Source: Intestinibacter sp.
GTDB taxonomy: Bacteria > Bacillota > Clostridia > Peptostreptococcales > Peptostreptococcaceae
Reading direction: 5' to 3'
Assembly: GCF_034113885.1 (NCBI RefSeq)
Contig: NZ_JAXEWM010000138.1
Span: 1,652-25,651 of the forward strand
Length of the DNA: 24,000 nt
A program made the position numbers and the translations under genes. Position 1 is the stretch's first letter, and each line of letters starts with the position of its first letter. Below, in pieces: positions 2,915-23,874 of the stretch. Below the pieces are notes generated by a model. That model made no database searches, was not told the DNA's origin, and saw nothing but the letters and a program-made list of their open reading frames with translations.

Positions 2915-4225
2915 ATGAAAGTTGCTTTGATTGCGCCAGTGTATACGGCAAATGTTATAAAAGATATTGTTGAACAAAATATAGATGATATAGATGTTGA
3001 TTTTGTTATTTACGACGATTATACAAAAGCAATCGAAATTGTAGGAAGTATACAGAAAAAGTACGATGCAATAATGTTTGTCGGTGTAGTAGTTTATAAA
3101 TTTGTGAAATCCTATTTGAAAGAGGAGTGTATATGGGGGTATTTTCCTCTACATGAAAGCTCTCTATCTATTGCTTTTTTAAAAGCATTGTATTTAAAAA
3201 AGAACATAAAAAATATAAGCATAGATACATATTCAAAAAATACTATTGAAGAGGTGTACAAAGCCATCGGTATAGATGTAGATGATGTAAATATTATGCT
3301 TTATGAAGTAGATGAATATAGAAACGATATAACAGAAGAGGCTATCGATTTTCACAAAGGTAACTTAGAAAAATACGACGATGTTTGTATAATTACGGCC
3401 TTGAGTGATGTAAAAAAGCTTCTTGATGATGAAAATATCGATAGTTATATGGTAACACCTACTAAAAGTATTATAGTAGATAGCTTTCAAAATTTATATT
3501 TAAAATACACAGCCAAGATAAATGCAAACAGTATGGTTGTAGCTATTTTTGTAGAAATAGATTTTCCAGACTCTTATTCTATAATAAGTAGAAATGAGTA
3601 TTATTATGTGAAGGAGAAAAATAAAGTTACAGAGAGTATTTATGAATTTGCAAATAAAATAGAGGCTGCTGTAATTGAGTTTAGCTATAATACATATATA
3701 ATGATTTCTACAAAAAAAATACTGGAAACAGAGACAGAAAATTATACAAAAATAGATTTGTTAAAGAATATTGGAGAGAATTCCTTAAATAAAATTTCAA
3801 TGGGAATTGGATATGGTAAGACTGCAAGTGAAGCTAAGTACAAGGCTAACGATGCTGTGAGAAAGGCTAAAGGGTATCCAAATGAAAATGTCGCCTATAT
3901 TATCTATGAGGATGGAAGAATTATCGGACCTGTAAAGGCGAATATAGAGAATAAAAAGGAAATAGCAGTTAACGACAGATTAATTAAAATAGCAGAGATA
4001 ACAAATGTGAGCATAAAAAAGATATTGGCTTTTTATAATGCTATAGATATATGTAAAAAAGATAGATTCACGGCAGACGAACTGTCAAAGCAATGTGATA
4101 TGTCATATAGAACTGTAAACAGAGCTATTAACAAGCTAGAGAGCTATGGATATGTAGAGGTTGTGGGCAAGCATTTTGAAGATGGTTCAGGTAGACCGAG
4201 AAGAATAATAAAATTTAATTTTTAG
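2915..4225 (+). CDS. Putative transcriptional regulator: uncharacterised N-terminal domain, GGDEF-like remnant, C-terminal winged-helix HTH
   Basis: RBS AGGAAGTGA lies upstream of the ATG. ISMGIGYGKTASEAKYKANDAVRKAKG resembles the C-terminal end of a GGDEF fold (as in PucR/CdaR-type GGDEF-like modules), but I see no GG[DE]EF signature. FTADELSKQCDMSYRTVNRAINKLESYGYVEV is HTH-like. Confidence 0.45.
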   Translation: MKVALIAPVYTANVIKDIVEQNIDDIDVDFVIYDDYTKAIEIVGSIQKKYDAIMFVGVVVYKFVKSYLKEECIWGYFPLHESSLSIAFLKALYLKKNIKNISIDTYSKNTIEEVYKAIGIDVDDVNIMLYEVDEYRNDITEEAIDFHKGNLEKYDDVCIITALSDVKKLLDDENIDSYMVTPTKSIIVDSFQNLYLKYTAKINANSMVVAIFVEIDFPDSYSIISRNEYYYVKEKNKVTESIYEFANKIEAAVIEFSYNTYIMISTKKILETETENYTKIDLLKNIGENSLNKISMGIGYGKTASEAKYKANDAVRKAKGYPNENVAYIIYEDGRIIGPVKANIENKKEIAVNDRLIKIAEITNVSIKKILAFYNAIDICKKDRFTADELSKQCDMSYRTVNRAINKLESYGYVEVVGKHFEDGSGRPRRIIKFNF

Positions 4226-9281: not shown

Positions 9282-10523
9282 ATGTTTGAAAATTTAAAAA
9301 TAGCAGATCCAGATTTATATGCTAGCATGAAGAGAGAATTAGTTAGACAACAAAGAAATATAGAGTTAATTGCATCTGAAAACATAGTTTCAGTGCCAGT
9401 TATGGAGGCTATGGGAAGTCATTTAACTAATAAATATGCAGAAGGCTATTCAGGCAAGAGATATTACGGCGGTTGCGCTCATATAGATGAGGTCGAAACT
9501 TTAGCTATAGAAAGAATCAAGAAAGTATTTGGCGCAGAGCATGCAAATGTACAACCACATTCAGGCGCAAATGCAAATTTAGCAGTTTATTTTGCAATGC
9601 TTAAACCAGGAGATAAGGTAATGGGTATGAATTTATCTGAAGGTGGTCACTTAACTCATGGTTCACCAGCGAATATATCAGGAAAATATTTTGATTTTAC
9701 TGAATATGGTATAAATGAAGAAGGCTTAATCGATTACGATGAAGTTAGAAAAATGGCTCTAGAAGTTAAACCTAAGATGATAGTTGCAGGTGCAAGTGCT
9801 TACCCTAGAGAAATAGATTTTAAAAAATTTAAAGAAATTGCAGATGAAGTAGGGGCTTATTTAATGGTAGATATGGCTCATATAGCAGGACTTGTAGCAG
9901 CTGGACTTCACCAAAATCCAGTAGAGGTTGCAGACTTTGTAACAACTACAACTCATAAGACTTTAAGAGGTCCTCGTGGCGGAGTTATACTTTGCAAGGA
10001 AAAATACGCAAAAGCAATAGACAAAGCTATATTCCCAGGAATACAAGGTGGTCCGCTTGAACATATTATAGCTTCAAAGGCAGTTTGCTTTAAGGAAGCA
10101 TTGAGCGATGAATTCAAAGCTTATCAAACTCAAGTCGTTAAAAATGCTAAAAAACTTGCTGAAGAATTATTAAAGAGAGGCTATAAGCTAGTAAGTGGAG
10201 GAACTGACAATCACTTGATTTTATTAGATTTTACAAACAAAGGAATAACAGGTAAGGAAGCTGAAAAATTGTTAGACGAAGCTTACATAACTGTAAATAA
10301 AAACACTGTACCAAATGATCCAAATGGTGCGCTTGTAACTAGCGGTGTTAGAATAGGTACTCCTGCTGTAACTACTAGAGGTATGGTGGAAGAGGATATG
10401 GCTGTAATTGCAGAAGCTATAGATTTATGCTTGAATGATAGAGATTTAGATATGGCTAGAGAATTAGTAATAGGTCTTACTAAGAAATATCCTCTATATG
10501 AAGAATACGATTTAATGGATTAA
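9282..10523 (+). CDS. glyA: Serine hydroxymethyltransferase (canonical)
   Basis: RBS GGAGG. Hallmark motifs: [47 protein letters not shown] (PLP lysine), [30 protein letters not shown]. Confidence 0.95.
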
Positions 10524-12851: not shown

Positions 12852-14105
12852 ATGTTAAAAACAACTAAAATCACAGATCCAGAAGTATACGCTATAGTAG
12901 CAGATGAATTAGAAAGACAAAAATATAATATAGAAATGATAGCATCAGAAAGTTCAGCACCAACTGAAATATTAGAATTAATGGGATGCGTATTCGTAAA
13001 TAAAACTGAAGAAGGTCTTCCAGGAAAAAGATATCAAGCAGGTTCTCAACATGCTGATAGAATAGAAAACTTATGTATAGAAAGAGCTAAAGAAGCTTTC
13101 GGTTGTGAATATGTAAACGTACAAGCTTATTCAGGAGCAACTGCAAACTATACAGCATTCAACGCTGTATTAGATCCAGGGGATAAAATATTAGCAATGA
13201 GACTTGACCACGGCGGACATTTAAGTCATGGTTCAGCAGCAAACTTTATGAGTAAAATATTTAACTACAAACATTATGGTGTAAATGATGACGGTGTAAT
13301 CGACTATGATCAAGTTGAACAAATGGCATTAGAATTCCAACCTAAAATGATAATAGCAGGGGCTAGTGCTTATCCAAGACTAATAGATTATAAGAGATTT
13401 AGAGAAATAGCTGATAAAGTAGGAGCTTATTTATTAGTAGATATGGCTCATATTTCAGGACTTATAGGAGCTGGTGTAATTCCTTCTCCAATCCCATATG
13501 CTGATTTTGCAACATCTTCTTGTTCAAAAACAATATGCGGTCCTAGAGGTGGATTCGTAATGTGTAAAGAAAAATATGCAAAACAATTAAATAGAGCTAC
13601 ATTCCCAGGAACTCTAGGTTCTATCCAAATAAATGGTATAGCTGCAAAAGCTAACATGTTCAAGAGAGTTAGAGAACCAGAATTTATAGCTACAATGCAA
13701 AGAGTTCTAGACAACGCAAAAACTTTAGCAGCAGAATTAGAAAAAAGAGGATTCAACATAGTAAGTGGTGGAACTGACAATCACATAGTATTAGTTGACT
13801 TAAGAGCAAAAGGAATAACTGGTAAACAATTTGACCAAACTCTAGAAAAAATAGGTATAACAGTTAATAAAAATGCTATACCAAATGATCCAGAAAGTCC
13901 ATTCGTAACAAGTGGTGTTCGTATAGGTCTTACTGCAACATCTGAAAGAGGATTCGGCGCAGCTGAAATGGCAGAAATCGCTGATATAATGAATACAGTA
14001 GCTGAAAACATCGATAACCAAGAAGTTTTAGACGAATGTAAAGCAAAAGCTAGAGCATTAGCTGCTAGATTCCCATTATACCCAGATGGATATTTTGAAG
14101 ACTAA
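12852..14105 (+). CDS. Divergent serine hydroxymethyltransferase-family PLP enzyme (second glyA-like paralogue)
   Basis: RBS AGGAGGAG. It keeps the SHMT fold motifs GGHLSHGS, VDMAHISGL, GPRGG, SGGTDNH, VNKNAIPNDP, TSGVRIG. Three conserved motifs are changed: NKTEEGLPGKRYQAGS, ATSSCSKTICGPRGG and LGSIQ replace the canonical versions. Confidence 0.85.
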   Translation: MLKTTKITDPEVYAIVADELERQKYNIEMIASESSAPTEILELMGCVFVNKTEEGLPGKRYQAGSQHADRIENLCIERAKEAFGCEYVNVQAYSGATANYTAFNAVLDPGDKILAMRLDHGGHLSHGSAANFMSKIFNYKHYGVNDDGVIDYDQVEQMALEFQPKMIIAGASAYPRLIDYKRFREIADKVGAYLLVDMAHISGLIGAGVIPSPIPYADFATSSCSKTICGPRGGFVMCKEKYAKQLNRATFPGTLGSIQINGIAAKANMFKRVREPEFIATMQRVLDNAKTLAAELEKRGFNIVSGGTDNHIVLVDLRAKGITGKQFDQTLEKIGITVNKNAIPNDPESPFVTSGVRIGLTATSERGFGAAEMAEIADIMNTVAENIDNQEVLDECKAKARALAARFPLYPDGYFED

Positions 14106-14190: not shown

Positions 14191-14378
14191 GAAAAAAGGA
14201 TTACTAAAGCACTATAACAATAACTCCGCTCCGTATGAATATGTTAAAGGATTTTGTGAGATTATGTATGAAATAAATTTTGTTGGGACATAATATAACC
14301 AAGAATTTGTATAAAAGTAAAAATATTCAAGATTGGGGATTTCTATAATAAATTGCTAAAATAATGAGGAGGTTTATT

Positions 14379-15509
14379 ATGTTTCGACAAGAACATTCAA
14401 ATATGTTTAGTTCTAAAAAAGTTAAATCAATGGTAGATAATTTAAATATAGAGGAAATGAATTCTTTAATAGCGCTAGCTCAAGCAAAATTAAAAAATTT
14501 GTATAATTTAGGCTTTTATGATGAAAAAGAGGGAAAAGACAAAATTTTGGAAGGTAGATTTAAAAAAGGTCTTAAATGCCCTAAATGTGGGAATTCAGAG
14601 CTAAATAAAAATGGAAAAACATATGGTCGTCAAAGATATATTTGCAAAAAATGTAGAAGAACTTTTGACGAAAGAAGTCTTTCTCCTCTTTCAAATACAA
14701 AATTGAGCTTGGAAAAATGGCTAAAATATTGTCAATTCATGATACAAGGTGGAACCATTAGAATGTGCGCTGAAGAAGTAGGAGTTAGTGTACCGACTGC
14801 ATTTTTTATGCGTCATAGAATTTTGGATGTGATTAATGTATCTTTAAAAGATGAAATTTTAGAGGGGATAGTTGAGACAGAGGCTTGTTATATCAACGAA
14901 TCATTCAAAGGATCACCTGTTTATAGCCATTCTGATGAAAAATATTTTAAAACATTTGATAAAAGTAGGGTGCCTTATCTGGGCATTCATTTTAATACAA
15001 TTGTAGGTATGATGGCAAGCAGAAAGAATATCAAGCAGGGTCAAATTTGTATTAATACGGCAATTGATAAAAAAGGACATATACTTACAAGAATAGTAGA
15101 TAATGATTTTGGAAAAAGTAATAATAAAATCAAATCTAGAAATATGGTGTCATTTTTTGAAGGGAAAGTAGAAAAAGATGCAACTTTATGTGTGTATTCA
15201 TGGAAGTATAGTAAAGTAGCTAGAGAGCTAGATTTAAAACTAGTAAAAGTGTTTAACCAAAGTAATCCTATTTATAACGTAAAACGTGTTTTTAAATATA
15301 ATAGAGAATTAAGAGAATGGATGAGAAATTTTAATGGTGTTGCTACTAAATATTTAAATAATTATTTAATATGGTTTAAATTTTTATTTATAAGTAGAAA
15401 ATATAAAGAATTTAATCGAATAAAGGAATTATTTATGGAATTAGCGACAAGGAATCTTTATATTACTCAGTATATGATAAAGAATAGATTTGTAGAATTA
15501 TTGCAGTGA
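14379..15509 (+). CDS. IS1595-family (ISXO2-like) transposase-like protein with N-terminal zinc ribbon; catalytic triad possibly degenerate
   Basis: The ORF track starts at 14364, but that codon overlaps AGGAGG (14367-14372), so the in-frame ATG 14379 (MFRQEH...) is preferred. Zinc ribbon: CPKCGNSELNKNGKTYGRQRYICKKCRRTF. HTH-like: KWLKYCQFMIQGGTIRMCAEEVGVSVPTAFFMRHRI. The C-terminal NGVATKYLNNYLIWFKFLF resembles the tail of the IS1595 DDE domain. Confidence 0.65.
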   Translation: MFRQEHSNMFSSKKVKSMVDNLNIEEMNSLIALAQAKLKNLYNLGFYDEKEGKDKILEGRFKKGLKCPKCGNSELNKNGKTYGRQRYICKKCRRTFDERSLSPLSNTKLSLEKWLKYCQFMIQGGTIRMCAEEVGVSVPTAFFMRHRILDVINVSLKDEILEGIVETEACYINESFKGSPVYSHSDEKYFKTFDKSRVPYLGIHFNTIVGMMASRKNIKQGQICINTAIDKKGHILTRIVDNDFGKSNNKIKSRNMVSFFEGKVEKDATLCVYSWKYSKVARELDLKLVKVFNQSNPIYNVKRVFKYNRELREWMRNFNGVATKYLNNYLIWFKFLFISRKYKEFNRIKELFMELATRNLYITQYMIKNRFVELLQ

Positions 15510-15683
15510 TTGTTTTATAATTTTGTAGCATGTAAAAAATGAAATATGCCTACGGCAAAGATAGCAATATTAATCACAAAGTTATTTAATATATTCATAA
15601 TGGTTACAATGGATAAGATGAGCAGATTGAAGAATGATTGTGATTTAGGGGCTAAAAAATTTGGAGAAATTTTGAAAATTTTC

Positions 15684-15711
15684 TTGCTAAAATAAAAATA
15701 TGTGTTATAAT
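15684..15711 (+). promoter_or_regulatory. Strong sigma-A-type promoter: TTGCTA - 16 nt - TGtTATAAT
   Basis: -35 TTGCTA at 15684-15689, TG at 15703-15704, consensus -10 TATAAT at 15706-15711. No ORF with an RBS follows for more than 500 nt. Confidence 0.65.
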
Positions 15712-15717
15712 TCATAA

Positions 15718-15830
15718 TATAAAAATTAAAACAAAGGTCTATAGTGGAATCTATGATTTCATCGATAAACCTGATAAGTTTAATTTGATATTACATTTTC
15801 ATAGATAGTATTCGTAGATCTGTCTTAACC
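15718..15830 (+). ncRNA. Candidate structured RNA unit 1 (Y-RNA-like rod); boundaries approximate
   Basis: Nested helices. P1: GGTCTA 15736-15741 with TAGATC 15815-15820. P2: ATCTATGA 15749-15756 with TCATAGAT 15799-15806. P3: ATCGA 15761-15765 with TTGAT 15785-15789. P4: TAAAC 15766-15770 with GTTTA 15778-15782. The apical loop is CTGATAA. G-U wobbles exist only on the + strand. Confidence 0.35.
15739..15766 (+). repeat. 28-nt conserved module, copy 1 (CTATAGtGGaAtCTATGATTTCATCGAT)
   Basis: 25/28 nt are identical to 15845-15872, in direct orientation with a 106-nt offset. Confidence 0.85.
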
Positions 15831-15838
15831 AAATAAAT

Positions 15839-15950
15839 ATATGCCTATAGCGGGAACTATGATTTCATCGATCTTGAGGAAAAGAATACATATTTAAACA
15901 ATAGTTAAAAAGCTAATTTGTTATATAGATATGAACTACTATATGCGTTA
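15839..15950 (+). ncRNA. Candidate structured RNA unit 2 (paralogue of unit 1); boundaries approximate
   Basis: It carries the same 28-nt module. P2': AACTAT 15855-15860 with ATAGTT 15901-15906, showing a compensatory T-A to A-T change relative to unit 1. Apical hairpin: TCTT 15872-15875 with AAGA 15882-15885. Outer helix: ATGC-C-TATAG 15841-15850 with CTATA-T-GCGT 15939-15948. Confidence 0.3.
15845..15872 (+). repeat. 28-nt conserved module, copy 2 (CTATAGcGGgAaCTATGATTTCATCGAT)
   Basis: 25/28 nt are identical to 15739-15766. The three differences fall in or next to the hairpin-loop positions. Confidence 0.85.
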
Positions 15951-15985
15951 AGTAGAGATGAGCATGTCTATATAAATTAAATTTA

Positions 15986-16008
15986 ATTAAATAAAATTAA
16001 ATAAAATT
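15986..16008. repeat. Tandem 10-nt A/T repeat (ATTAAATAAA x 2.3)
   Basis: ATTAAATAAA occurs at 15986-15995 and again at 15996-16005, followed by ATT. The A-tracts are phased at about 10 bp, which suggests intrinsic DNA curvature. Confidence 0.7.
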
Positions 16009-16143
16009 TTAATAATCATAGTCAATATTCATAGGCATTTACAAATACTCATAAAGATATGGAGGGTCTTTTCTAAAGTACATACCGTAGTAATTCATTT
16101 AAAAAGAAAATTTAATAATTTTTGGAGAGATATTAGTTGGTTT

Positions 16144-16163
16144 TATTTTTGTGCAAATAAACA
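16144..16163 (+). repeat. Direct repeat 1 upstream of the TROVE gene (TATTTTTGTGCAAATAAACA)
   Basis: 18/20 nt are identical to 16188-16207, and the first 15 nt are perfect. TAGTATAG follows at 16175-16182. Confidence 0.8.
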
Positions 16164-16187
16164 GAGATTTTGCATAGTATAGATGTG

Positions 16188-16207
16188 TATTTTTGTGCAA
16201 ATTTACA
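16188..16207 (+). repeat. Direct repeat 2 upstream of the TROVE gene (TATTTTTGTGCAAATTTACA)
   Basis: 18/20 nt are identical to 16144-16163. TAGTATAG follows at 16210-16217, and TATAGT (16213-16218) is a possible -10. Confidence 0.8.
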
Positions 16208-16241
16208 ACTAGTATAGTTTTTATTCAAGGAGGCCAGGAAT

Positions 16242-17903
16242 ATGAGTAAAATGAGCAAAGAAGTAAAAAAAATAACAAAAGAAAATTCTAATAAGGAAAA
16301 AGGTAGAGTAGAAAACTTTATGGGTGGATATTCTTATGAAATAAATCCTTTAGATACTATGAAGATGGTGACTGCATCATCTATATTTGGTGAGCCACAG
16401 TATTATATAGATGGGAAATTCTGTGAGTCAGGTTTAAAAAGAGAAATTAGAAATTCGATACACCGTTTGTTTGCACCTTATTCAGTGTTTGATATTTCAT
16501 TAGTAAGTGATAAAACTACTAAGGAAATAATGGAAGAGGTTATCGATGATGCTTTGGAGTATGATTTTGAAGCGACTTTGAGATGGGCTAAGACCTTGAG
16601 AGAGGATTATTTTATGAGATTAAATCCTCAGGTAATAATGGTAAGAGCAGCTATGTCAAAGTATAGAGCTGAGTTTACTGAAAAACATCCAGGGCTGTTT
16701 GATGAGATAAATCAAAGTGTTATGAGAAGATGTGATGATCCACTAAGTCAGTTGACTTACTACTTATATATAAACAAATCTAAAAATAATTTACCAGGAA
16801 TTTTAAAAAAATCAATAAAAAAGAGACTAGAAAAGGCTCGTGCCTATGAATTGAAAAAATATAAAAATAAGGAAATAGGTGTGATAGATGCAGTTAGAAT
16901 AACTCATGCAAATAGTAAGATTATAGATGAGCTTATGCAAACTGGCAATATAGAGGTCGAAGAAAACGATTTAACTTGGGAAAATCTAAGAGCAGGTGGC
17001 AAGTCGTGGACTGAAATTTTAGATACTATAAAAATGAATCATATGGCGCTTCTTAGAAATTTAAGAGGAATTTTTAAAGAAATAGATGATTTAGAAAAAA
17101 CTAAAGAAATTATGGAAAACTTGAAAAAAGGTGTTAAAGGTGGTAAACAATTTCCATTTAGATATATGAGTGCTTACAATGCTGTAGAAATAGATCGCAA
17201 TGTAAACAATAAGGGAGTAATTTTAGATGGATTAAATGAATGCTTGGATATTGCGTGTGATAACTTACCTAAGTTAAAGGGTAAATCAGCGTTTCTATCA
17301 GATAATTCAGGCTCCGCCTGGGGAACTTGCACATCAGAATTTGGGAAAGTTACAGTTGGGGAAATCGACAACCTAAGCTCAATGATAGGAGCTGTAAACT
17401 CTGATGATGGACATGTATTCGCCTTCGGCGACGAATTGATAGAGTATCCAGTTTCAAAAAGAACTGGCATCTTAACTCAATCTAAACATATGTCTAAATC
17501 AGCACGAAAAGATGTAGGATTTGCTACAGAAAATGGTATATGGATATTTTTCAGAGATGCGATAAATAAAAAGCAGCATTGGGATAATATATTCATATAT
17601 TCAGATATGCAAGCAGGTCATGGCAGTCTTTATGGTACATCAAAAGGTATTGAAGAATACAGAAATCAAGGATATTGTATAGACCGATATATAGGATATG
17701 TGGATGTGGCGAAATTAATCGAGGATTATAGAAAATATGTAAACCCTAAGGTAAATGTATTCTCAATTCAGACAGCAGGCTACAAAAATGTAGCAGTTCC
17801 AGAATATGGATATAGAACTAATATACTTTATGGATGGACTGGAAAAGAGCTAGTATTTGCCGATACCATGATAAAAATGTGGGATGAAATTGATAGTCGC
17901 TAA
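16242..17903 (+). CDS. TROVE-domain + vWA protein, Ro60 (Rsr)-like RNA-binding protein
   Basis: AAGGAGG lies 8 nt before the ATG. Three matches to human Ro60, quoted from my memory of that sequence: SSIFGEPQYYI (cf. FGSEGGTYYI), HMALLRNLRG (cf. LTALLRNLGK), FPFRYMSAY (cf. HPFHILIAL). The C-terminal vWA domain has the MIDAS motif DNSGS and a later IYSDMQ. Confidence 0.8.
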   Translation: MSKMSKEVKKITKENSNKEKGRVENFMGGYSYEINPLDTMKMVTASSIFGEPQYYIDGKFCESGLKREIRNSIHRLFAPYSVFDISLVSDKTTKEIMEEVIDDALEYDFEATLRWAKTLREDYFMRLNPQVIMVRAAMSKYRAEFTEKHPGLFDEINQSVMRRCDDPLSQLTYYLYINKSKNNLPGILKKSIKKRLEKARAYELKKYKNKEIGVIDAVRITHANSKIIDELMQTGNIEVEENDLTWENLRAGGKSWTEILDTIKMNHMALLRNLRGIFKEIDDLEKTKEIMENLKKGVKGGKQFPFRYMSAYNAVEIDRNVNNKGVILDGLNECLDIACDNLPKLKGKSAFLSDNSGSAWGTCTSEFGKVTVGEIDNLSSMIGAVNSDDGHVFAFGDELIEYPVSKRTGILTQSKHMSKSARKDVGFATENGIWIFFRDAINKKQHWDNIFIYSDMQAGHGSLYGTSKGIEEYRNQGYCIDRYIGYVDVAKLIEDYRKYVNPKVNVFSIQTAGYKNVAVPEYGYRTNILYGWTGKELVFADTMIKMWDEIDSR

Positions 17904-17924
17904 TATAAAAAAGGATGTGATTAG

Positions 17925-18767
17925 ATGTATAAAATGTATGGAACAATAATCGGGGATATAGCTGGTTCTACATATGAATTTAAAAATATAAAATACAGCC
18001 TAGATCGTAAAGATTTGATAAATAAAAGAAGTGAGTTTACTGATGATACTGTTATGGCTTTGGCAGTTGCAAAGGGAATTTACAATGTGATTAAAGATGA
18101 TGATAATAAAAAATCACTTGATATAATAGGCAACAAGGATAGACAAGATGATTTGTATTTATCTATACAAAAGGAGATGCAGGATTTTGGTAGAATATAC
18201 CCAAATGCAGGATATGGAGGAAGCTTTATTCAGTGGATACATTCTGAAAATCCTAAGCCATACAACAGTTGGGGAAATGGCTCAGCTATGAGAGTTGCGT
18301 ATTGTGGTTGGATAGCAAATTCCTTAGAGGAGGCAGAGCTTTTAGCTGAGATATCAGCAAAAATAACGCACGATCATTTTGAAGGGATAAAGGGAGCTAA
18401 AGTAGTAGCTGGATGTATATTCTTGCTTAGAAACGGAGCTACTAAGCAAGAAATTAAAGATTATGCATCTAAGTACTACTATTTAGATTTTACACTAGAT
18501 GAAATCAGACCAATTTATAAATTTGATGTAAGCTGTCAAGGCTCTGTACCACAAGCCATAACCGCATTTCTAGAAGGAGAGGATTTCTGCAGCGTAATAT
18601 CAAAGGCGATATCAATAGGCGGTGACAGTGATACGATAGCTGCTATAGCTGGTAGTATAGCTGAGGCTTTTTACGAAATACCAGATTTTCTGTACAATAG
18701 ATCTATAGATAAGCTAGATGATTTTTTATTAGATGTTTTATATGATATCAACCAGATTTTAGATTAA
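17925..18767 (+). CDS. ADP-ribosylglycohydrolase (ARH/DraG family)
   Basis: Family motifs: GDIAGSTYEF, FTDDTVMALAVA, GNGSAMRVA, GGDSDTIAAIAGSIAEAFY. The metal-binding acidic residues are present. The start lies 21 nt after the TROVE stop, with no terminator between the two genes. Confidence 0.85.
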   Translation: MYKMYGTIIGDIAGSTYEFKNIKYSLDRKDLINKRSEFTDDTVMALAVAKGIYNVIKDDDNKKSLDIIGNKDRQDDLYLSIQKEMQDFGRIYPNAGYGGSFIQWIHSENPKPYNSWGNGSAMRVAYCGWIANSLEEAELLAEISAKITHDHFEGIKGAKVVAGCIFLLRNGATKQEIKDYASKYYYLDFTLDEIRPIYKFDVSCQGSVPQAITAFLEGEDFCSVISKAISIGGDSDTIAAIAGSIAEAFYEIPDFLYNRSIDKLDDFLLDVLYDINQILD

Positions 18768-18780
18768 TAAAAATAAAGAG

Positions 18781-18813
18781 CTGAGTCCAAATTCAATAGG
18801 ATTCAGTTTTTTT
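18781..18813 (+). terminator. Intrinsic terminator closing the TROVE-ARH operon
   Basis: CTGAGTCC (18781-18788) pairs with GGATTCAG (18799-18806), 8 bp with one G-U wobble, followed by TTTTTTT. Confidence 0.75.
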
Positions 18814-18858: not shown

Positions 18859-20388
<1,530 letters not shown>

Positions 20389-22248: not shown

Positions 22249-22392
22249 TAATGAAATAAGTATTTTGATTATTAAATTTATTGTCGTTAAATTAATTTTT
22301 TTGTTAAAATTAAAGGAAAAATTAATAATTAAAACGAAATATAAAATATATTAGCGAGTATATTAGTATATACAAAAGAGGTGAATTTTTTA

Positions 22393-23874
22393 GTGAGGGA
22401 TAAAATAATTTCAATTTTAAAAACAAAAGTATATATATATGATAAAAAACTTTCTTATTTTTTGGATGATATAGAAAAAATTTATGATATAGTTCAAAGT
22501 AAAATATTAGATATTGATTGTAAAAATAATATATTAGTTTCATCAGAAAGAATAGGTATAGATGTATGTTTATTAGTTATTGTAGCTATTAATACATATC
22601 TTGAAGATTTAAAAAATTATAATAATAATATAGTATCTAACTTAAAAACAGATCAAGTTGTTATGTATAAAGGAAGAAAATATAAATACAAAGGTTGTGA
22701 AGTTGATAAAAGTGGTTATTTTAAAGATACTGAATATATAGTATTAGAAGCTAGGAATGGTATTCAAAAAATATTCAAAAGTGATGCATACAAATTAACA
22801 CGATATTTTGGTAAATCAGAAAAGTTAGATAAAATGGGAAAAAATAATGAGAGTAAAGAAGGAAGAAAATTAATTAGTAAATTACTTGATTTAGATATTA
22901 ATCAATTAGTTGGTGTTTTAAATCAACAAATATTAGTAGTATTTAAGAGTAAAAAATATATGCAACATATTTTAGAAAATTTAAAAATTGAAATAAATCA
23001 ACAAAAGTATGAATTTGGAACAGTATTTCCTGCAAGATATTATAGTGATATAGATAATTTTATTGATATTAAAGGAAATAAACTTCATTTACAAAATATA
23101 TTTTTGTTTACATCAAGATTTGATGTGGCAGATTTATTAATAGGTGAATACAGTAATTGTAATAAATTAATTTTATTGGAGGAAGAATCTTATTATAAAT
23201 CAATTTCTATAATAGAAGATTATATTTTAGATGAAGAACAACTTGAAAAAGTTATATTTTATAATACATACAATCATATAGATAGGATTGTAAATTTAAT
23301 TGAAAATGATGCAAGTGTATATGCAATAGGTGAAAAAGAAAATTTAAAGGTTAAGAATATTTTGGTAGAATCAAGTAAAATAAACGGTTTGTTATATATT
23401 ACAAAAACGCAACTAAAAAATTTATTAAAGCCAGAATTTGATTTTGTAAAAAAAGATGAGTTTATAAAAAATACTTTTAAGCTACTTAAAATTTTTCAAT
23501 TAATATGTATTCCAATAAATAAATTTAATGAAAAGTATATTATAGACAGAGGAATTAAAATTATAAATAAAATAACTGAAAATACTTATCAATATACTAC
23601 AATTTATGAGAAATTAAAATGTATATGTGAAAATCTACGTGATTTATATGATTTATTATATACTTCTAATCCTAAATTAAATATTCTAGAATATATTTCA
23701 GACAAGAATTCCACTATTATATTAAATAATAATTCTGAAATTGAATTTATAAGTAAAAATAAAAAAATAAAATTTAAAAAATTAGAGAGTATAAATAATT
23801 TAAACAATTTAAAATTACAGAATCAAAAATTGATATTTATGTCATTTTATAATAATAAATACACCACTTTATAA
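22393..23874 (+). CDS. Hypothetical protein, very AT-rich and Lys/Asn/Ile-rich, no motif recognised
   Basis: It is a long uninterrupted ORF. The track start GTG 22381 overlaps the RBS AAAGAGGTGA (22375-22384), so the in-frame GTG 22393, 9 nt downstream, is preferred. I found no P-loop, nuclease or HTH signature by eye. Confidence 0.55.
   Translation: MRDKIISILKTKVYIYDKKLSYFLDDIEKIYDIVQSKILDIDCKNNILVSSERIGIDVCLLVIVAINTYLEDLKNYNNNIVSNLKTDQVVMYKGRKYKYKGCEVDKSGYFKDTEYIVLEARNGIQKIFKSDAYKLTRYFGKSEKLDKMGKNNESKEGRKLISKLLDLDINQLVGVLNQQILVVFKSKKYMQHILENLKIEINQQKYEFGTVFPARYYSDIDNFIDIKGNKLHLQNIFLFTSRFDVADLLIGEYSNCNKLILLEEESYYKSISIIEDYILDEEQLEKVIFYNTYNHIDRIVNLIENDASVYAIGEKENLKVKNILVESSKINGLLYITKTQLKNLLKPEFDFVKKDEFIKNTFKLLKIFQLICIPINKFNEKYIIDRGIKIINKITENTYQYTTIYEKLKCICENLRDLYDLLYTSNPKLNILEYISDKNSTIILNNNSEIEFISKNKKIKFKKLESINNLNNLKLQNQKLIFMSFYNNKYTTL

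Follow-up and report, generated by a model that had tools for sequence, protein, structure and literature searches.

We analyzed a 24,000-nucleotide stretch of an Intestinibacter sp. contig (the window), in which a gene for a Ro60-related protein (rsr) is preceded by two Y-like RNAs and followed by a gene for an ADP-ribosylglycohydrolase of the ARH/DraG family (Table 1). The cassette lies among housekeeping genes encoding SHMT, glycerol kinase and an LD-carboxypeptidase, and no prophage genes were found in Pfam scans of the window. On the upstream side, a strain-specific IS1595-family insertion (NCBIfam match of the transposase with E 1.2e-30), absent from the syntenic loci L010, L014, and L019, ends about 18 nt before the putative Y RNA promoter; this insertion is context and lies outside the Ro60/Y RNA module. 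A DrmE-family gene is located 4.5 kb downstream.

Table 1. Features of the rsr locus, in coordinates of the window.
Feature	Position	Strand	Description
IS1595-family insertion	14308..15665	+	transposase ORF 14364-15509
Promoter-like site	15684..15711	+	sigma-70 type; TTGCTA, 16 nt, TATAAT, with TG
Y-like RNA 1	15736..15820	+	R1 covariance match, MFE fold
Y-like RNA 2	15841..16038	+	MFE fold, R1 match of the 5' half, compensatory changes
Conserved block between RNA 2 and rsr	16045..16086	+	ATACTCATAAAGATATGGAGGGTCTTTTCTAAAGTACATACC
rsr	16242..17903	+	553 aa, Ro60-related protein with TROVE ring and vWA/MIDAS
Junction	17904..17924	+	21 nt, scar of a deletion of about 86 nt
ARH/DraG-family ADP-ribosylglycohydrolase	17925..18767	+	280 aa, Pfam PF03747
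Intrinsic terminator after ARH	18775..18812	+	hairpin and T-run

The rsr gene encodes a full-length protein of the Ro60/Rsr type, consisting of a TROVE ring and a vWA domain. A preliminary description of this DNA, made from the sequence alone, had quoted Ro60 motifs and a MIDAS motif for this ORF, and all of them were located: FGEPQYY at aa 49-55, ALLRNLRG at aa 269-276, FPFRY at aa 304-308 and, in the vWA domain, DNSGS at aa 354-358. The placement in the TROVE family was borne out by a structure match and by Pfam PF05731, which scored above its cut-off (32.1 bits, E 9e-8; gathering score 23) with a match restricted to aa 254-316, the segment that contains ALLRNLRG and FPFRY. A single-sequence search of Rsr against PDB gave no match; a family profile matched the Ro60 protein of Thermus phage phiLo (9l5y/9kop) with E 3.5e-12 over aa 111-358. 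Foldseek searches of PDB with an AF2 model of Rsr (pLDDT 76, pTM 0.78) returned 13 matches at E<=0.001, all 13 of which are Ro60/Rsr structures with 513-602 aligned columns, including 9kop (E 6e-13), 2nvo of D. radiodurans (E 1e-9), 1yvp of Xenopus and human 9nen. In this prediction, HEAT repeats form a full-length ring on which the vWA domain sits as a cap. Pfam VWA was not detected in Rsr, so that fold and motifs are the basis for assigning the vWA domain. The residues S353-D-N-S-G-S358, T429, and D455 show no variation in 22 homologs, which is consistent with a MIDAS site in which T429 and D455 would act as distal ligands. The closest named relative is gp540 of Bacillus phage G, with 54.5% identity over all 553 aa. 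Candidate assignments of Rsr to Drt5 or NheC (PADLOC, NCBIfam) were judged spurious (16-19 bits against cut-offs of 420-550); the PADLOC Drt5 match reached 17 bits (E 5e-4) and covered only aa 190-294. Among the anti-phage defense systems known to PADLOC, neither Rsr nor ARH had a significant match. Rsr belongs to a divergent Ro60 subfamily which is barely visible to Pfam.

The downstream ORF is, as described previously, an intact hydrolase of the ARH/DraG family, with a Pfam ADP_ribosyl_GH match of E 1.2e-31 (110.8 bits against 26.2). The motifs TDDT (aa 39-42), GNGSAMRV (aa 117-124) and GGDSDTIAAIAG (aa 232-243) were located, and the stretches with the acidic residues, T39-D40-D41 and G232-G-D-S-D-T237, are without variation in 18 homologs. 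The nearest solved structures are ARH3, Lmo0067, MJ1187, and DraG. An assignment as DraG or Tri1 equivalog was rejected, with scores far below both NCBIfam cut-offs (44.6 against 337 bits and 37.6 against 490 bits, respectively). Homologs of ARH occupy varied contexts without TROVE. The terminator said to close the region after ARH was also found, as a hairpin and T-run with -16.1 kcal/mol (z -5.9).

Y-like RNAs had been suggested to lie adjacent to the TROVE gene, and two were identified upstream of it. Rfam searches of the whole window at the gathering threshold gave no Y RNA family, and the question was settled with a covariance model (R1), whose seed was taken from six distant loci only, with segments of uniform length. 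R1 gave 55 matches in at least 34 of 83 genome loci. Across these matches 98.9% of the cells are paired, against 33-49% in slid controls, and double changes occur in 13 of the 13 pairs. A further 130 matches came from 67 of 80 viral loci (the best 80 of 149); all of them have the orientation of the TROVE gene and, with few exceptions, lie immediately next to it. RNAs of this kind thus accompany the TROVE homologs in the majority of bacterial and phage loci examined, and their covariation is strong. The best match in the whole window is Y-like RNA 1 (27.3 bits, E 6e-4, 13/13 pairs canonical), and its MFE fold has the same architecture as the model. Its terminal stem is formed by GGUCUA and UAGAUC at the 5' and 3' ends, and is followed by an internal loop (UAGUGG // AGUAUUCG) and a second stem (AUCUAUGA/UCAUAGAU), after which come UUUCAUC and a short hairpin module; a tRNA-like domain is absent. 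Compensatory changes were found in L021. Y-like RNA 2 has a terminal stem and loops of the same type, in the order GCCUA UAGCGG GAACUAUGA UUUCAUC ... UCAUAGUC AAUAUUCA UAGGC, and encloses an AT-rich module of about 150 nt. Its 5' half is the third-best R1 match in the window, its 5' and 3' ends are paired in the MFE fold (-39.4 kcal/mol, z -3.1), and both stems show compensatory changes in L010, L021, and L186; the RNA is also present in L269.

The RNAs are not members of the YrlA family, as they lack its tRNA-like module (T-arm and D-arm mimic). RF02553 (YrlA) gave no match on window positions 15400-16350 even at E<=10, GGTTCGA or GTAGCTCA motifs were not found in the window, and ARAGORN detected neither tRNA nor tmRNA there. 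An RNA of the relative L072 matches the whole Rfam YrlA model (39.8 bits, E 1.8e-7, gathering score 69). Upstream of both RNAs, a promoter consensus scan identified a site with 10 of 12 matches plus TG, which is kept in L010-L013 and L021 and, judged by its sequence, probably serves as their promoter. Downstream of RNA 2, only 3 of 42 positions in the conserved block vary across the window, L010, L021, and L186, while its flanks diverge; the block was found in L269 too.

The gap between rsr and ARH is exactly 21 nt (TATAAAAAAGGATGTGATTAG) and, in agreement with the preliminary description, contains no terminator, the only structure being a hairpin of -5 kcal/mol (z -0.9). When the junction was aligned with L019 and L186, a deletion of about 86 nt became apparent in the window, which took the rsr terminator with it. 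The terminator is present between rsr and ARH in L019 (-24.1 kcal/mol, z -8.0) and L186 (-19.5 kcal/mol, z -6.3) and is kept in L269; with a strong terminator in each of these three relatives, rsr and ARH do not form a single transcription unit there. L010, in which ARH is deleted, and L021, which has no ARH, carry this terminator after the TROVE gene as well. Because ARH-bearing relatives have a terminator between the genes, the apparent operon in the window is an artefact of a recent deletion. With the rsr terminator gone, transcription of rsr probably continues into ARH, so that both genes are probably co-transcribed in the window strain.

The distribution of the gene pair was surveyed from both sides. 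On the TROVE side, tblastn and an ARH-family HMM were applied to 178 TROVE loci; of the genome and viral matches, the analysis covered the best 80 of 187 and the best 80 of 149, respectively. ARH was present in three of the 178 (L014, L019, and L020), which are 96-97% identical to the window, and no ARH-family ORF was found within 4-5 kb of TROVE in about 75 loci of other species or in 80 viral loci. On the ARH side, one of 89 loci with ARH relatives had a TROVE neighbor (L186), and one more case of rsr-ARH adjacency (L269) turned up in a separate search. ARH adjoins TROVE only in the window and these five loci, all from one clade with 81-97% TROVE identity. TROVE homologs number more than 3300, and the overwhelming majority have no ARH. 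In the sister lineage L010-L013 (93% identical), ARH and glpK were deleted and rsr and its terminator kept. In L021/L015, an 83%-identical cassette of Y RNAs, rsr and terminator lies without ARH in a different genome context, and has in common with the window only positions 15660-17894 plus the terminator. Around the 178 TROVE loci no recurring protein partner was found, the largest neighbor family being present in 13. Pfam scans of the large ORFs of the window revealed no ADP-ribosyltransferase, RtcB or RtcA, and no RtcR regulator beside rsr; an Rsr-RtcBA RNA repair operon of the enterobacterial type was rejected on this basis. No paper containing both 'TROVE domain' and 'ADP-ribosylglycohydrolase' was found in the literature searched, which did not include Burroughs and Aravind 2016 or the review by Sim et al. 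2020.

The locus is best explained, with a probability of roughly 0.8 (0.82), as a bacterial Ro60 (Rsr)/Y RNA cassette beside an unrelated ARH-family gene. The conserved unit consists of the promoter, the two Y-like RNAs, rsr and a terminator (in relatives, its own), and ARH is a neighbor and not a conserved partner of rsr. We infer the functions of all RNAs and proteins at the locus, largely by analogy: the TROVE/vWA ring would bind the Y RNAs at their conserved terminal stem and internal loop, and the Y RNAs would gate the ring and tether Rsr to an exoribonuclease such as PNPase, with the resulting Rsr/Y RNA complex degrading or remodeling structured or damaged RNA under stress. The cassette is one of a subfamily with many members in gut Firmicutes and large phages, and behaves as a discrete, horizontally movable unit. 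In this reading ARH is a separate transcription unit that came by chance to lie downstream in one Intestinibacter-like clade and, since the loss of about 86 nt with the rsr terminator in the window sublineage, is probably read through. We found no indication that ARH acts on Rsr, the Y RNAs or substrates of Rsr.

The dedicated Ro60-ARH partnership proposed in the preliminary description is not supported, as adjacency is essentially confined to the one Intestinibacter-like clade, and the comparative evidence also speaks against an RNA de-ADP-ribosylation module, the two genes being split by a terminator in the relatives. A dedicated RNA surveillance and repair operon, in which Y RNA-guided Rsr would capture ADP-ribosylated or damaged RNA and co-transcribed ARH would remove the ADP-ribose, fits the junction, where missing termination makes co-transcription likely, as well as the intact, invariant catalytic motifs of ARH and the adjacency kept in six contigs of one clade. 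However, this adjacency is missing from every other lineage tested from either the TROVE or the ARH side, the genes are separated by a terminator in L019, L186, and L269, L010-L013 lost ARH and kept rsr, ARH does not accompany the cassette when it moves (L021/L015), the vicinity encodes no ADP-ribosyltransferase and no TROVE-ARH link was found in the literature searched, which makes such an operon quite improbable. Regulation of the TROVE protein by ARH, through reversal of its ADP-ribosylation, has physical adjacency in its favor, but the same comparative evidence, the absence of an ADP-ribosyltransferase from the window and the thousands of TROVE homologs without ARH leave it with next to no probability. 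The adjacency within the clade spans a divergence to 81% for TROVE and to 84% for ARH (L186, L269), and this persistence is longer than a chance, passing arrangement would show; ordinary synteny nevertheless accounts for it. A reading in which the terminator deletion created a new rsr-ARH operon in the Intestinibacter sublineage, and the older clade-wide adjacency reflects a lineage-specific link with ARH removing ADP-ribose from RNAs that the Ro60 ring handles (or from Rsr or Y RNA), is likewise quite improbable.

A different question is whether the Y RNA-rsr cassette serves housekeeping RNA quality control or is phage-derived cargo for phage-host conflict, for example by co-opting host PNPase or answering tRNA damage. 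The latter is a tentative but real possibility. It is suggested by 149 relatives on viral contigs of IMG/VR, many of these 80-500 kb long, by homologs that lie within tRNA/tmRNA clusters of phages (Bacillus phage G, L041, L032, and L001 among them), by integrase, GmrSD, TIR, and NB-ARC genes as neighbors in other loci, by the occurrence of the same cassette in two unrelated genomic contexts, by the complex of phiLo Ro60 with host PNPase (PMC12135203) and by the DrmE-family gene downstream. Against it, the window cassette sits among housekeeping genes, with prophage genes absent.

A Ro60-ARH repair module, if true, would newly link RNA surveillance to the reversal of nucleic-acid ADP-ribosylation, and a lineage-specific rsr-ARH link would be an emerging RNA de-ADP-ribosylation branch of Ro60 surveillance. 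As the comparative evidence is against the module, follow-up effort on it can be saved. Read as a Ro60/Y RNA cassette beside an unrelated gene, the locus offers a clear-cut case from a divergent Ro60 subfamily with a wide distribution among gut Firmicutes and large phages. It also illustrates how a small deletion turns two neighboring genes into an apparent operon. Its Y RNAs are missed by the Rfam YrlA model, and in this lineage they lack the tRNA-like module formerly assumed for at least one Y RNA of each species.

The pairing of Ro60 with Y RNAs in bacteria is already known, and the locus adds a further member. ARH shares the fold family and the metal-binding acidic motifs of ARH3, DraG, and Tri1 (PF03747); unlike DraG and Tri1, it falls far below the equivalog cut-offs and no cognate ADP-ribosyltransferase was found nearby. 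As in Salmonella and Mycobacterium, where Rsr occurs with YrlA/YrlB (PMC4201824; RF02553), a Ro60 ortholog has Y RNAs encoded alongside, and the window RNAs resemble YrlA/YrlB in having a terminal stem with a CGAA-type motif and an internal loop. They differ in carrying UAUAG(C/U)GG in place of CGAAGCGG and, compared with YrlA, in the absence of the T-arm and D-arm mimic; RF02553 does not detect them. At least one Y RNA per species has a tRNA-like domain according to Chen et al. 2014 (PMC4201824), a pattern from which the window departs, as both of its Y RNAs are without one; this is a point against reading the locus as a Ro60/Y RNA cassette. Relatives of the window TROVE subfamily carry the YrlA-like tRNA-mimic module, as in Salmonella and Mycobacterium. 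The Salmonella and Mycobacterium Rsr loci also differ from the window in that the latter has no RtcB, RtcA or RtcR, and the similarity of Rsr to canonical Rsr proteins is visible at the fold level only. Among solved structures, phiLo Ro60 (9KOP/9L5Y) is the best profile and structural match to Rsr, although it has about 500 aa and only about 17-19% identity. Its gene is preceded by two Y-like RNAs, Yrl1 and Yrl2, and the protein forms a complex with host PNPase (PMC12135203); a RYPER-like complex with PNPase has been demonstrated for phiLo alone. Phage G is named, with Chen et al. 2014 as the source, in a passage of PMC12135203 among phages credited with a Ro60 homolog and Y-like RNAs. Its gp540, annotated as 'putative TROVE domain ribonucleoprotein', lies within a tRNA/tmRNA cluster of a 498-kb phage with no ARH nearby, whereas the window holds a chromosomal copy with two Y RNAs and housekeeping genes around it. 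The phage G locus (L183) nevertheless resembles the window in having several co-oriented Y-like RNAs upstream of the TROVE gene, detected as R1 matches at 3257-3759 in an unannotated gap.

Both genes of the pair, rsr (the TROVE gene) and ARH, were recovered in the AT-rich window (31% GC) together with all motifs quoted in the preliminary description, the gap of exactly 21 nt between them, in which folding found no terminator, and the terminator behind ARH. The TROVE protein is a genuine Ro60/Rsr-type TROVE and vWA protein of a divergent subfamily, because a profile of its family (alignment of 22 sequences) matches Ro60 of Thermus phage phiLo (E 3.5e-12), the AlphaFold model computed from this alignment (pLDDT 76, pTM 0.78) matches at E ≤ 0.001 exclusively Ro60/Rsr structures (phiLo, Xenopus, human, D. 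radiodurans), each over its full length, no family member deviates in the DxSxS motif (D354, S356, S358) or at T429 or D455, and the closest named relative, gp540 of Bacillus phage G (annotated 'putative TROVE domain ribonucleoprotein'), is 54.5% identical across all 553 residues. The profile search thus places the ORF in the TROVE family, and its earlier designation as Ro60-like TROVE/vWA was correct. The Pfam TROVE model scored above its cut-off solely across residues 254-316, and neither a search for Pfam VWA nor a PDB search with the single sequence gave a match. The database search yielded more than 3300 homologs for the subfamily. Matches of residues 190-299 to the antiviral reverse transcriptase Drt5 in NCBIfam and PADLOC were weak (E about 5e-4, 17-19 bits) and probably represent helical-repeat noise. 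The proposed ARH/DraG-family enzyme is indeed an intact PF03747 ADP-ribosylglycohydrolase (Pfam, E 1.2e-31), whose metal-binding motifs TDDT and GGDSDT are invariant among homologs. It scored far under the cut-offs of both the DraG and the Tri1 equivalogs, and among solved structures it comes closest to ARH3, Lmo0067, MJ1187 and DraG (E 1e-9 to 3e-5).

Homologs of the TROVE gene were compared at 178 loci, namely 98 from assemblies and species-representative genomes (including the best 80 of 187 matches) and 80 viral contigs (the best 80 of 149). K-mer enrichment beside TROVE homologs uncovered a shared Y-like RNA composed of the stem 1 5' strand, (A/U)(A/U)GCGG, the stem 2 5' strand, UUACUUC, a module, the stem 2 3' strand, nnAUUCn and the stem 1 3' strand, the module mimicking the T-arm and D-arm of tRNA in some copies and forming a simple hairpin in others. 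A copy of the tRNA-like type (L072, 4768-4901) matched the whole Rfam YrlA model at 39.8 bits (E 1.8e-7), under the gathering score. A covariance model was built on six distant loci, none near the window. With filters off, its best match in the whole 24-kb window was Y-like RNA 1 (27.3 bits, E 6e-4; 13 of 13 pairs canonical), and its third-ranked match, at 15842, covered the 5' half of another copy. The stem of this Y-like RNA 2 is closed at 16016-16038 around an unusual insert, AT-rich and about 150 nt long, with which folding agrees. Compensatory substitutions among the window and three related loci (L010, L021, L186) back both RNAs, so that the earlier claim of adjacent Y-like RNAs holds upstream of rsr. 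The tRNA-like module is missing from both, and the Rfam YrlA model detects neither; Chen et al. (2014; PMC4201824) described one or more tRNA-like Y RNAs for each species. The covariance model gave 55 matches in 34 genome loci, with 98.9% of cells paired compared to 33-49% in slid controls and double changes at 13 of 13 pairs. Among the best 80 of 149 viral loci, 67 contained a total of 130 matches, invariably on the same strand as TROVE and almost always immediately up- or downstream of the gene. No recurrent neighbouring protein family was present in more than 13 of the 178 loci. Judged from these sequence comparisons, the Y-like RNAs appear to be the conserved partner of rsr.

Coordinates of features in the window and in related loci
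Feature	Locus	Position	Strand	Remarks
IS1595-family element	window	14308-15665		transposase ORF 14364-15509
Promoter-like site	window	15684-15711		TTGCTA, 16 nt, TATAAT, with TG; conserved; upstream of Y-like RNAs
Y-like RNA 1	window	15736-15820	+	
Y-like RNA 2	window	15841-16038	+	
42-nt block ATACTCATAAAGATATGGAGGGTCTTTTCTAAAGTACATACC	window	16045-16086	+	3/42 positions vary
Direct repeat of TTTTTGTGCAAAT	window	16146-16158, 16190-16202	+	just 5' of rsr ribosome-binding site
TROVE ORF (rsr)	window	16242-17903	+	553 aa
ARH ORF	window	17925-18767	+	280 aa
Hairpin and T-run after ARH	window	18775-18812		-16.1 kcal/mol, z -5.9
Glycerol kinase gene	window	18859-20388	+	
Serine hydroxymethyltransferase genes	window	9282-10523, 12852-14105	+	2.3 kb apart
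DrmE-family ORF	window	22381-23874	+	at window edge
Y-like RNA array	L109/L110/L184	5790-6530		five RNAs
Y-like RNA array	L183 (Bacillus phage G)	3257-3759		five RNAs
Y-like RNA array	L153/L154	2512-3081		four (L153), five (L154)
Y-like RNA array	L106	5673-6174		five RNAs
tRNA array near TROVE	L041	3788-4681		
tRNA array near TROVE	L032	5207-6026		
tRNA array near TROVE	L001	5796-9306		
tRNA array near TROVE	L268 (Bacillus phage G)	528-9218		

Several further elements were observed around the RNAs. The 42-nt block is more conserved than its flanks across lineages with TROVE proteins 81-93% identical to that of the window; it holds a five-codon mini-ORF (MEGLF) and could extend RNA 2 in the 3' direction, serve as a leader or be a regulatory element. 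The TTTTTGTGCAAAT repeat, partly conserved in L010, L021 and L186, is a candidate for an operator or for a duplicated promoter element of rsr. About 18 nt separate the -35 element of the Y RNA promoter from the IS1595 element inserted upstream of it. This insertion, which three syntenic loci (L010, L014, L019) do not have, could change expression of the cassette. The tandem arrays on viral contigs consist of four or five Y-like RNAs, all in one orientation next to the TROVE gene, and combine tRNA-like with simple-hairpin modules.

The preliminary description had speculated that Ro60 and ARH form an RNA surveillance and repair module. Using tblastn and an HMM from 120 ARH homologs, an ARH ORF was detected near TROVE in only three of the 178 loci (L014, L019 and L020, the last two on Intestinibacter sp. 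MAG contigs), all with TROVE proteins 96-97% identical to that of the window. Among 89 loci with ARH relatives, mostly 45-60% identical, a TROVE gene was found near one (L186; ARH 86%, TROVE 81%), and L269 also carries the pair (ARH 84%, TROVE 81%). As the pair was found only in these five loci beside the window, the adjacency is limited to one narrow Intestinibacter-like clade. Four loci (L010-L013, TROVE 93%) keep the synteny of SHMT, rsr, LD-carboxypeptidase and HAD and have lost ARH and glpK, with a 93-nt internal ARH remnant as the sole trace; rsr is maintained there without ARH. The region is structurally fluid, the gene order in L186 being TROVE, ARH, peptidase, with glpK missing. The glycerol kinase gene is present in the window, L014, L019 and L020, where ARH precedes and the LD-carboxypeptidase gene follows it, and is missing from L186 and L010; its GC content is 40% vs 31% for the window. 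Elsewhere in the window, two serine hydroxymethyltransferase paralogs (about 67% nucleotide identity) enclose an Orn/DAP decarboxylase gene and a flavin reductase-rubredoxin gene.

In the junction alignment, L019, L186 and L269 have about 86-110 nt from the stop codon of TROVE to the start codon of ARH. The spacer holds a strong intrinsic terminator in L019 (-24.1 kcal/mol, z -8.0) and L186 (-19.5 kcal/mol, z -6.3) and the same hairpin in L269, where -24.1 kcal/mol is the fold of the whole 125-nt spacer and not of its hairpin by itself. This terminator also stands behind rsr in L010, from which ARH is deleted, and in L021, which is without functional ARH. The L021 rsr gene (83% identical) lies in an unrelated context adjoining an NB-ARC kinase gene, and the blastn match of L021 and L015 to the window is confined to 15660-17894, which comprises promoter, RNA region and rsr. 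The retained terminators and the limits of this match point to promoter, Y RNAs, rsr and terminator as an ancestral, mobile unit, and to a deletion common to the window, L014 and L020 that took out the terminator and left ARH 0-21 nt behind rsr. The 'operon' in the window is the product of this recent deletion. A functional Ro60-ARH module is therefore unsupported, because the adjacency is lineage-restricted, dispensable and interrupted by a terminator in every relative without the deletion. It is very improbable that co-transcription of rsr and ARH in the window's sublineage has functional consequences.

A role of the subfamily in phage-host conflict would be plausible, given its abundance on large phage contigs and the frequent location of its members within tRNA or tmRNA clusters, although the cassette in the window is flanked by housekeeping genes. 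TROVE homologs often adjoin 6-12 arrayed tRNA genes, joined by a tmRNA in phage G, which suggests spread of the subfamily together with phage modules for translation and RNA maintenance. The DrmE-family ORF (NCBIfam NF038316, E 1.5e-43, profile positions 3-288 of 838; no Pfam or PADLOC match) may mark where a DISARM-type defence locus begins or be a fragment of one.

By analogy to Rsr of D. radiodurans and Salmonella, as summarised in PMC4201824, and to phiLo Ro60 (PMC12135203), the Y RNAs would attach to the outside of the ring formed by Ro60 via their conserved stem and loop, control access to its cavity and tether PNPase or another exoribonuclease, and the complex would then work on structured or damaged RNAs. 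The locus is a bacterial Ro60 with Y RNAs, of a kind already known, beside an unrelated ARH gene.
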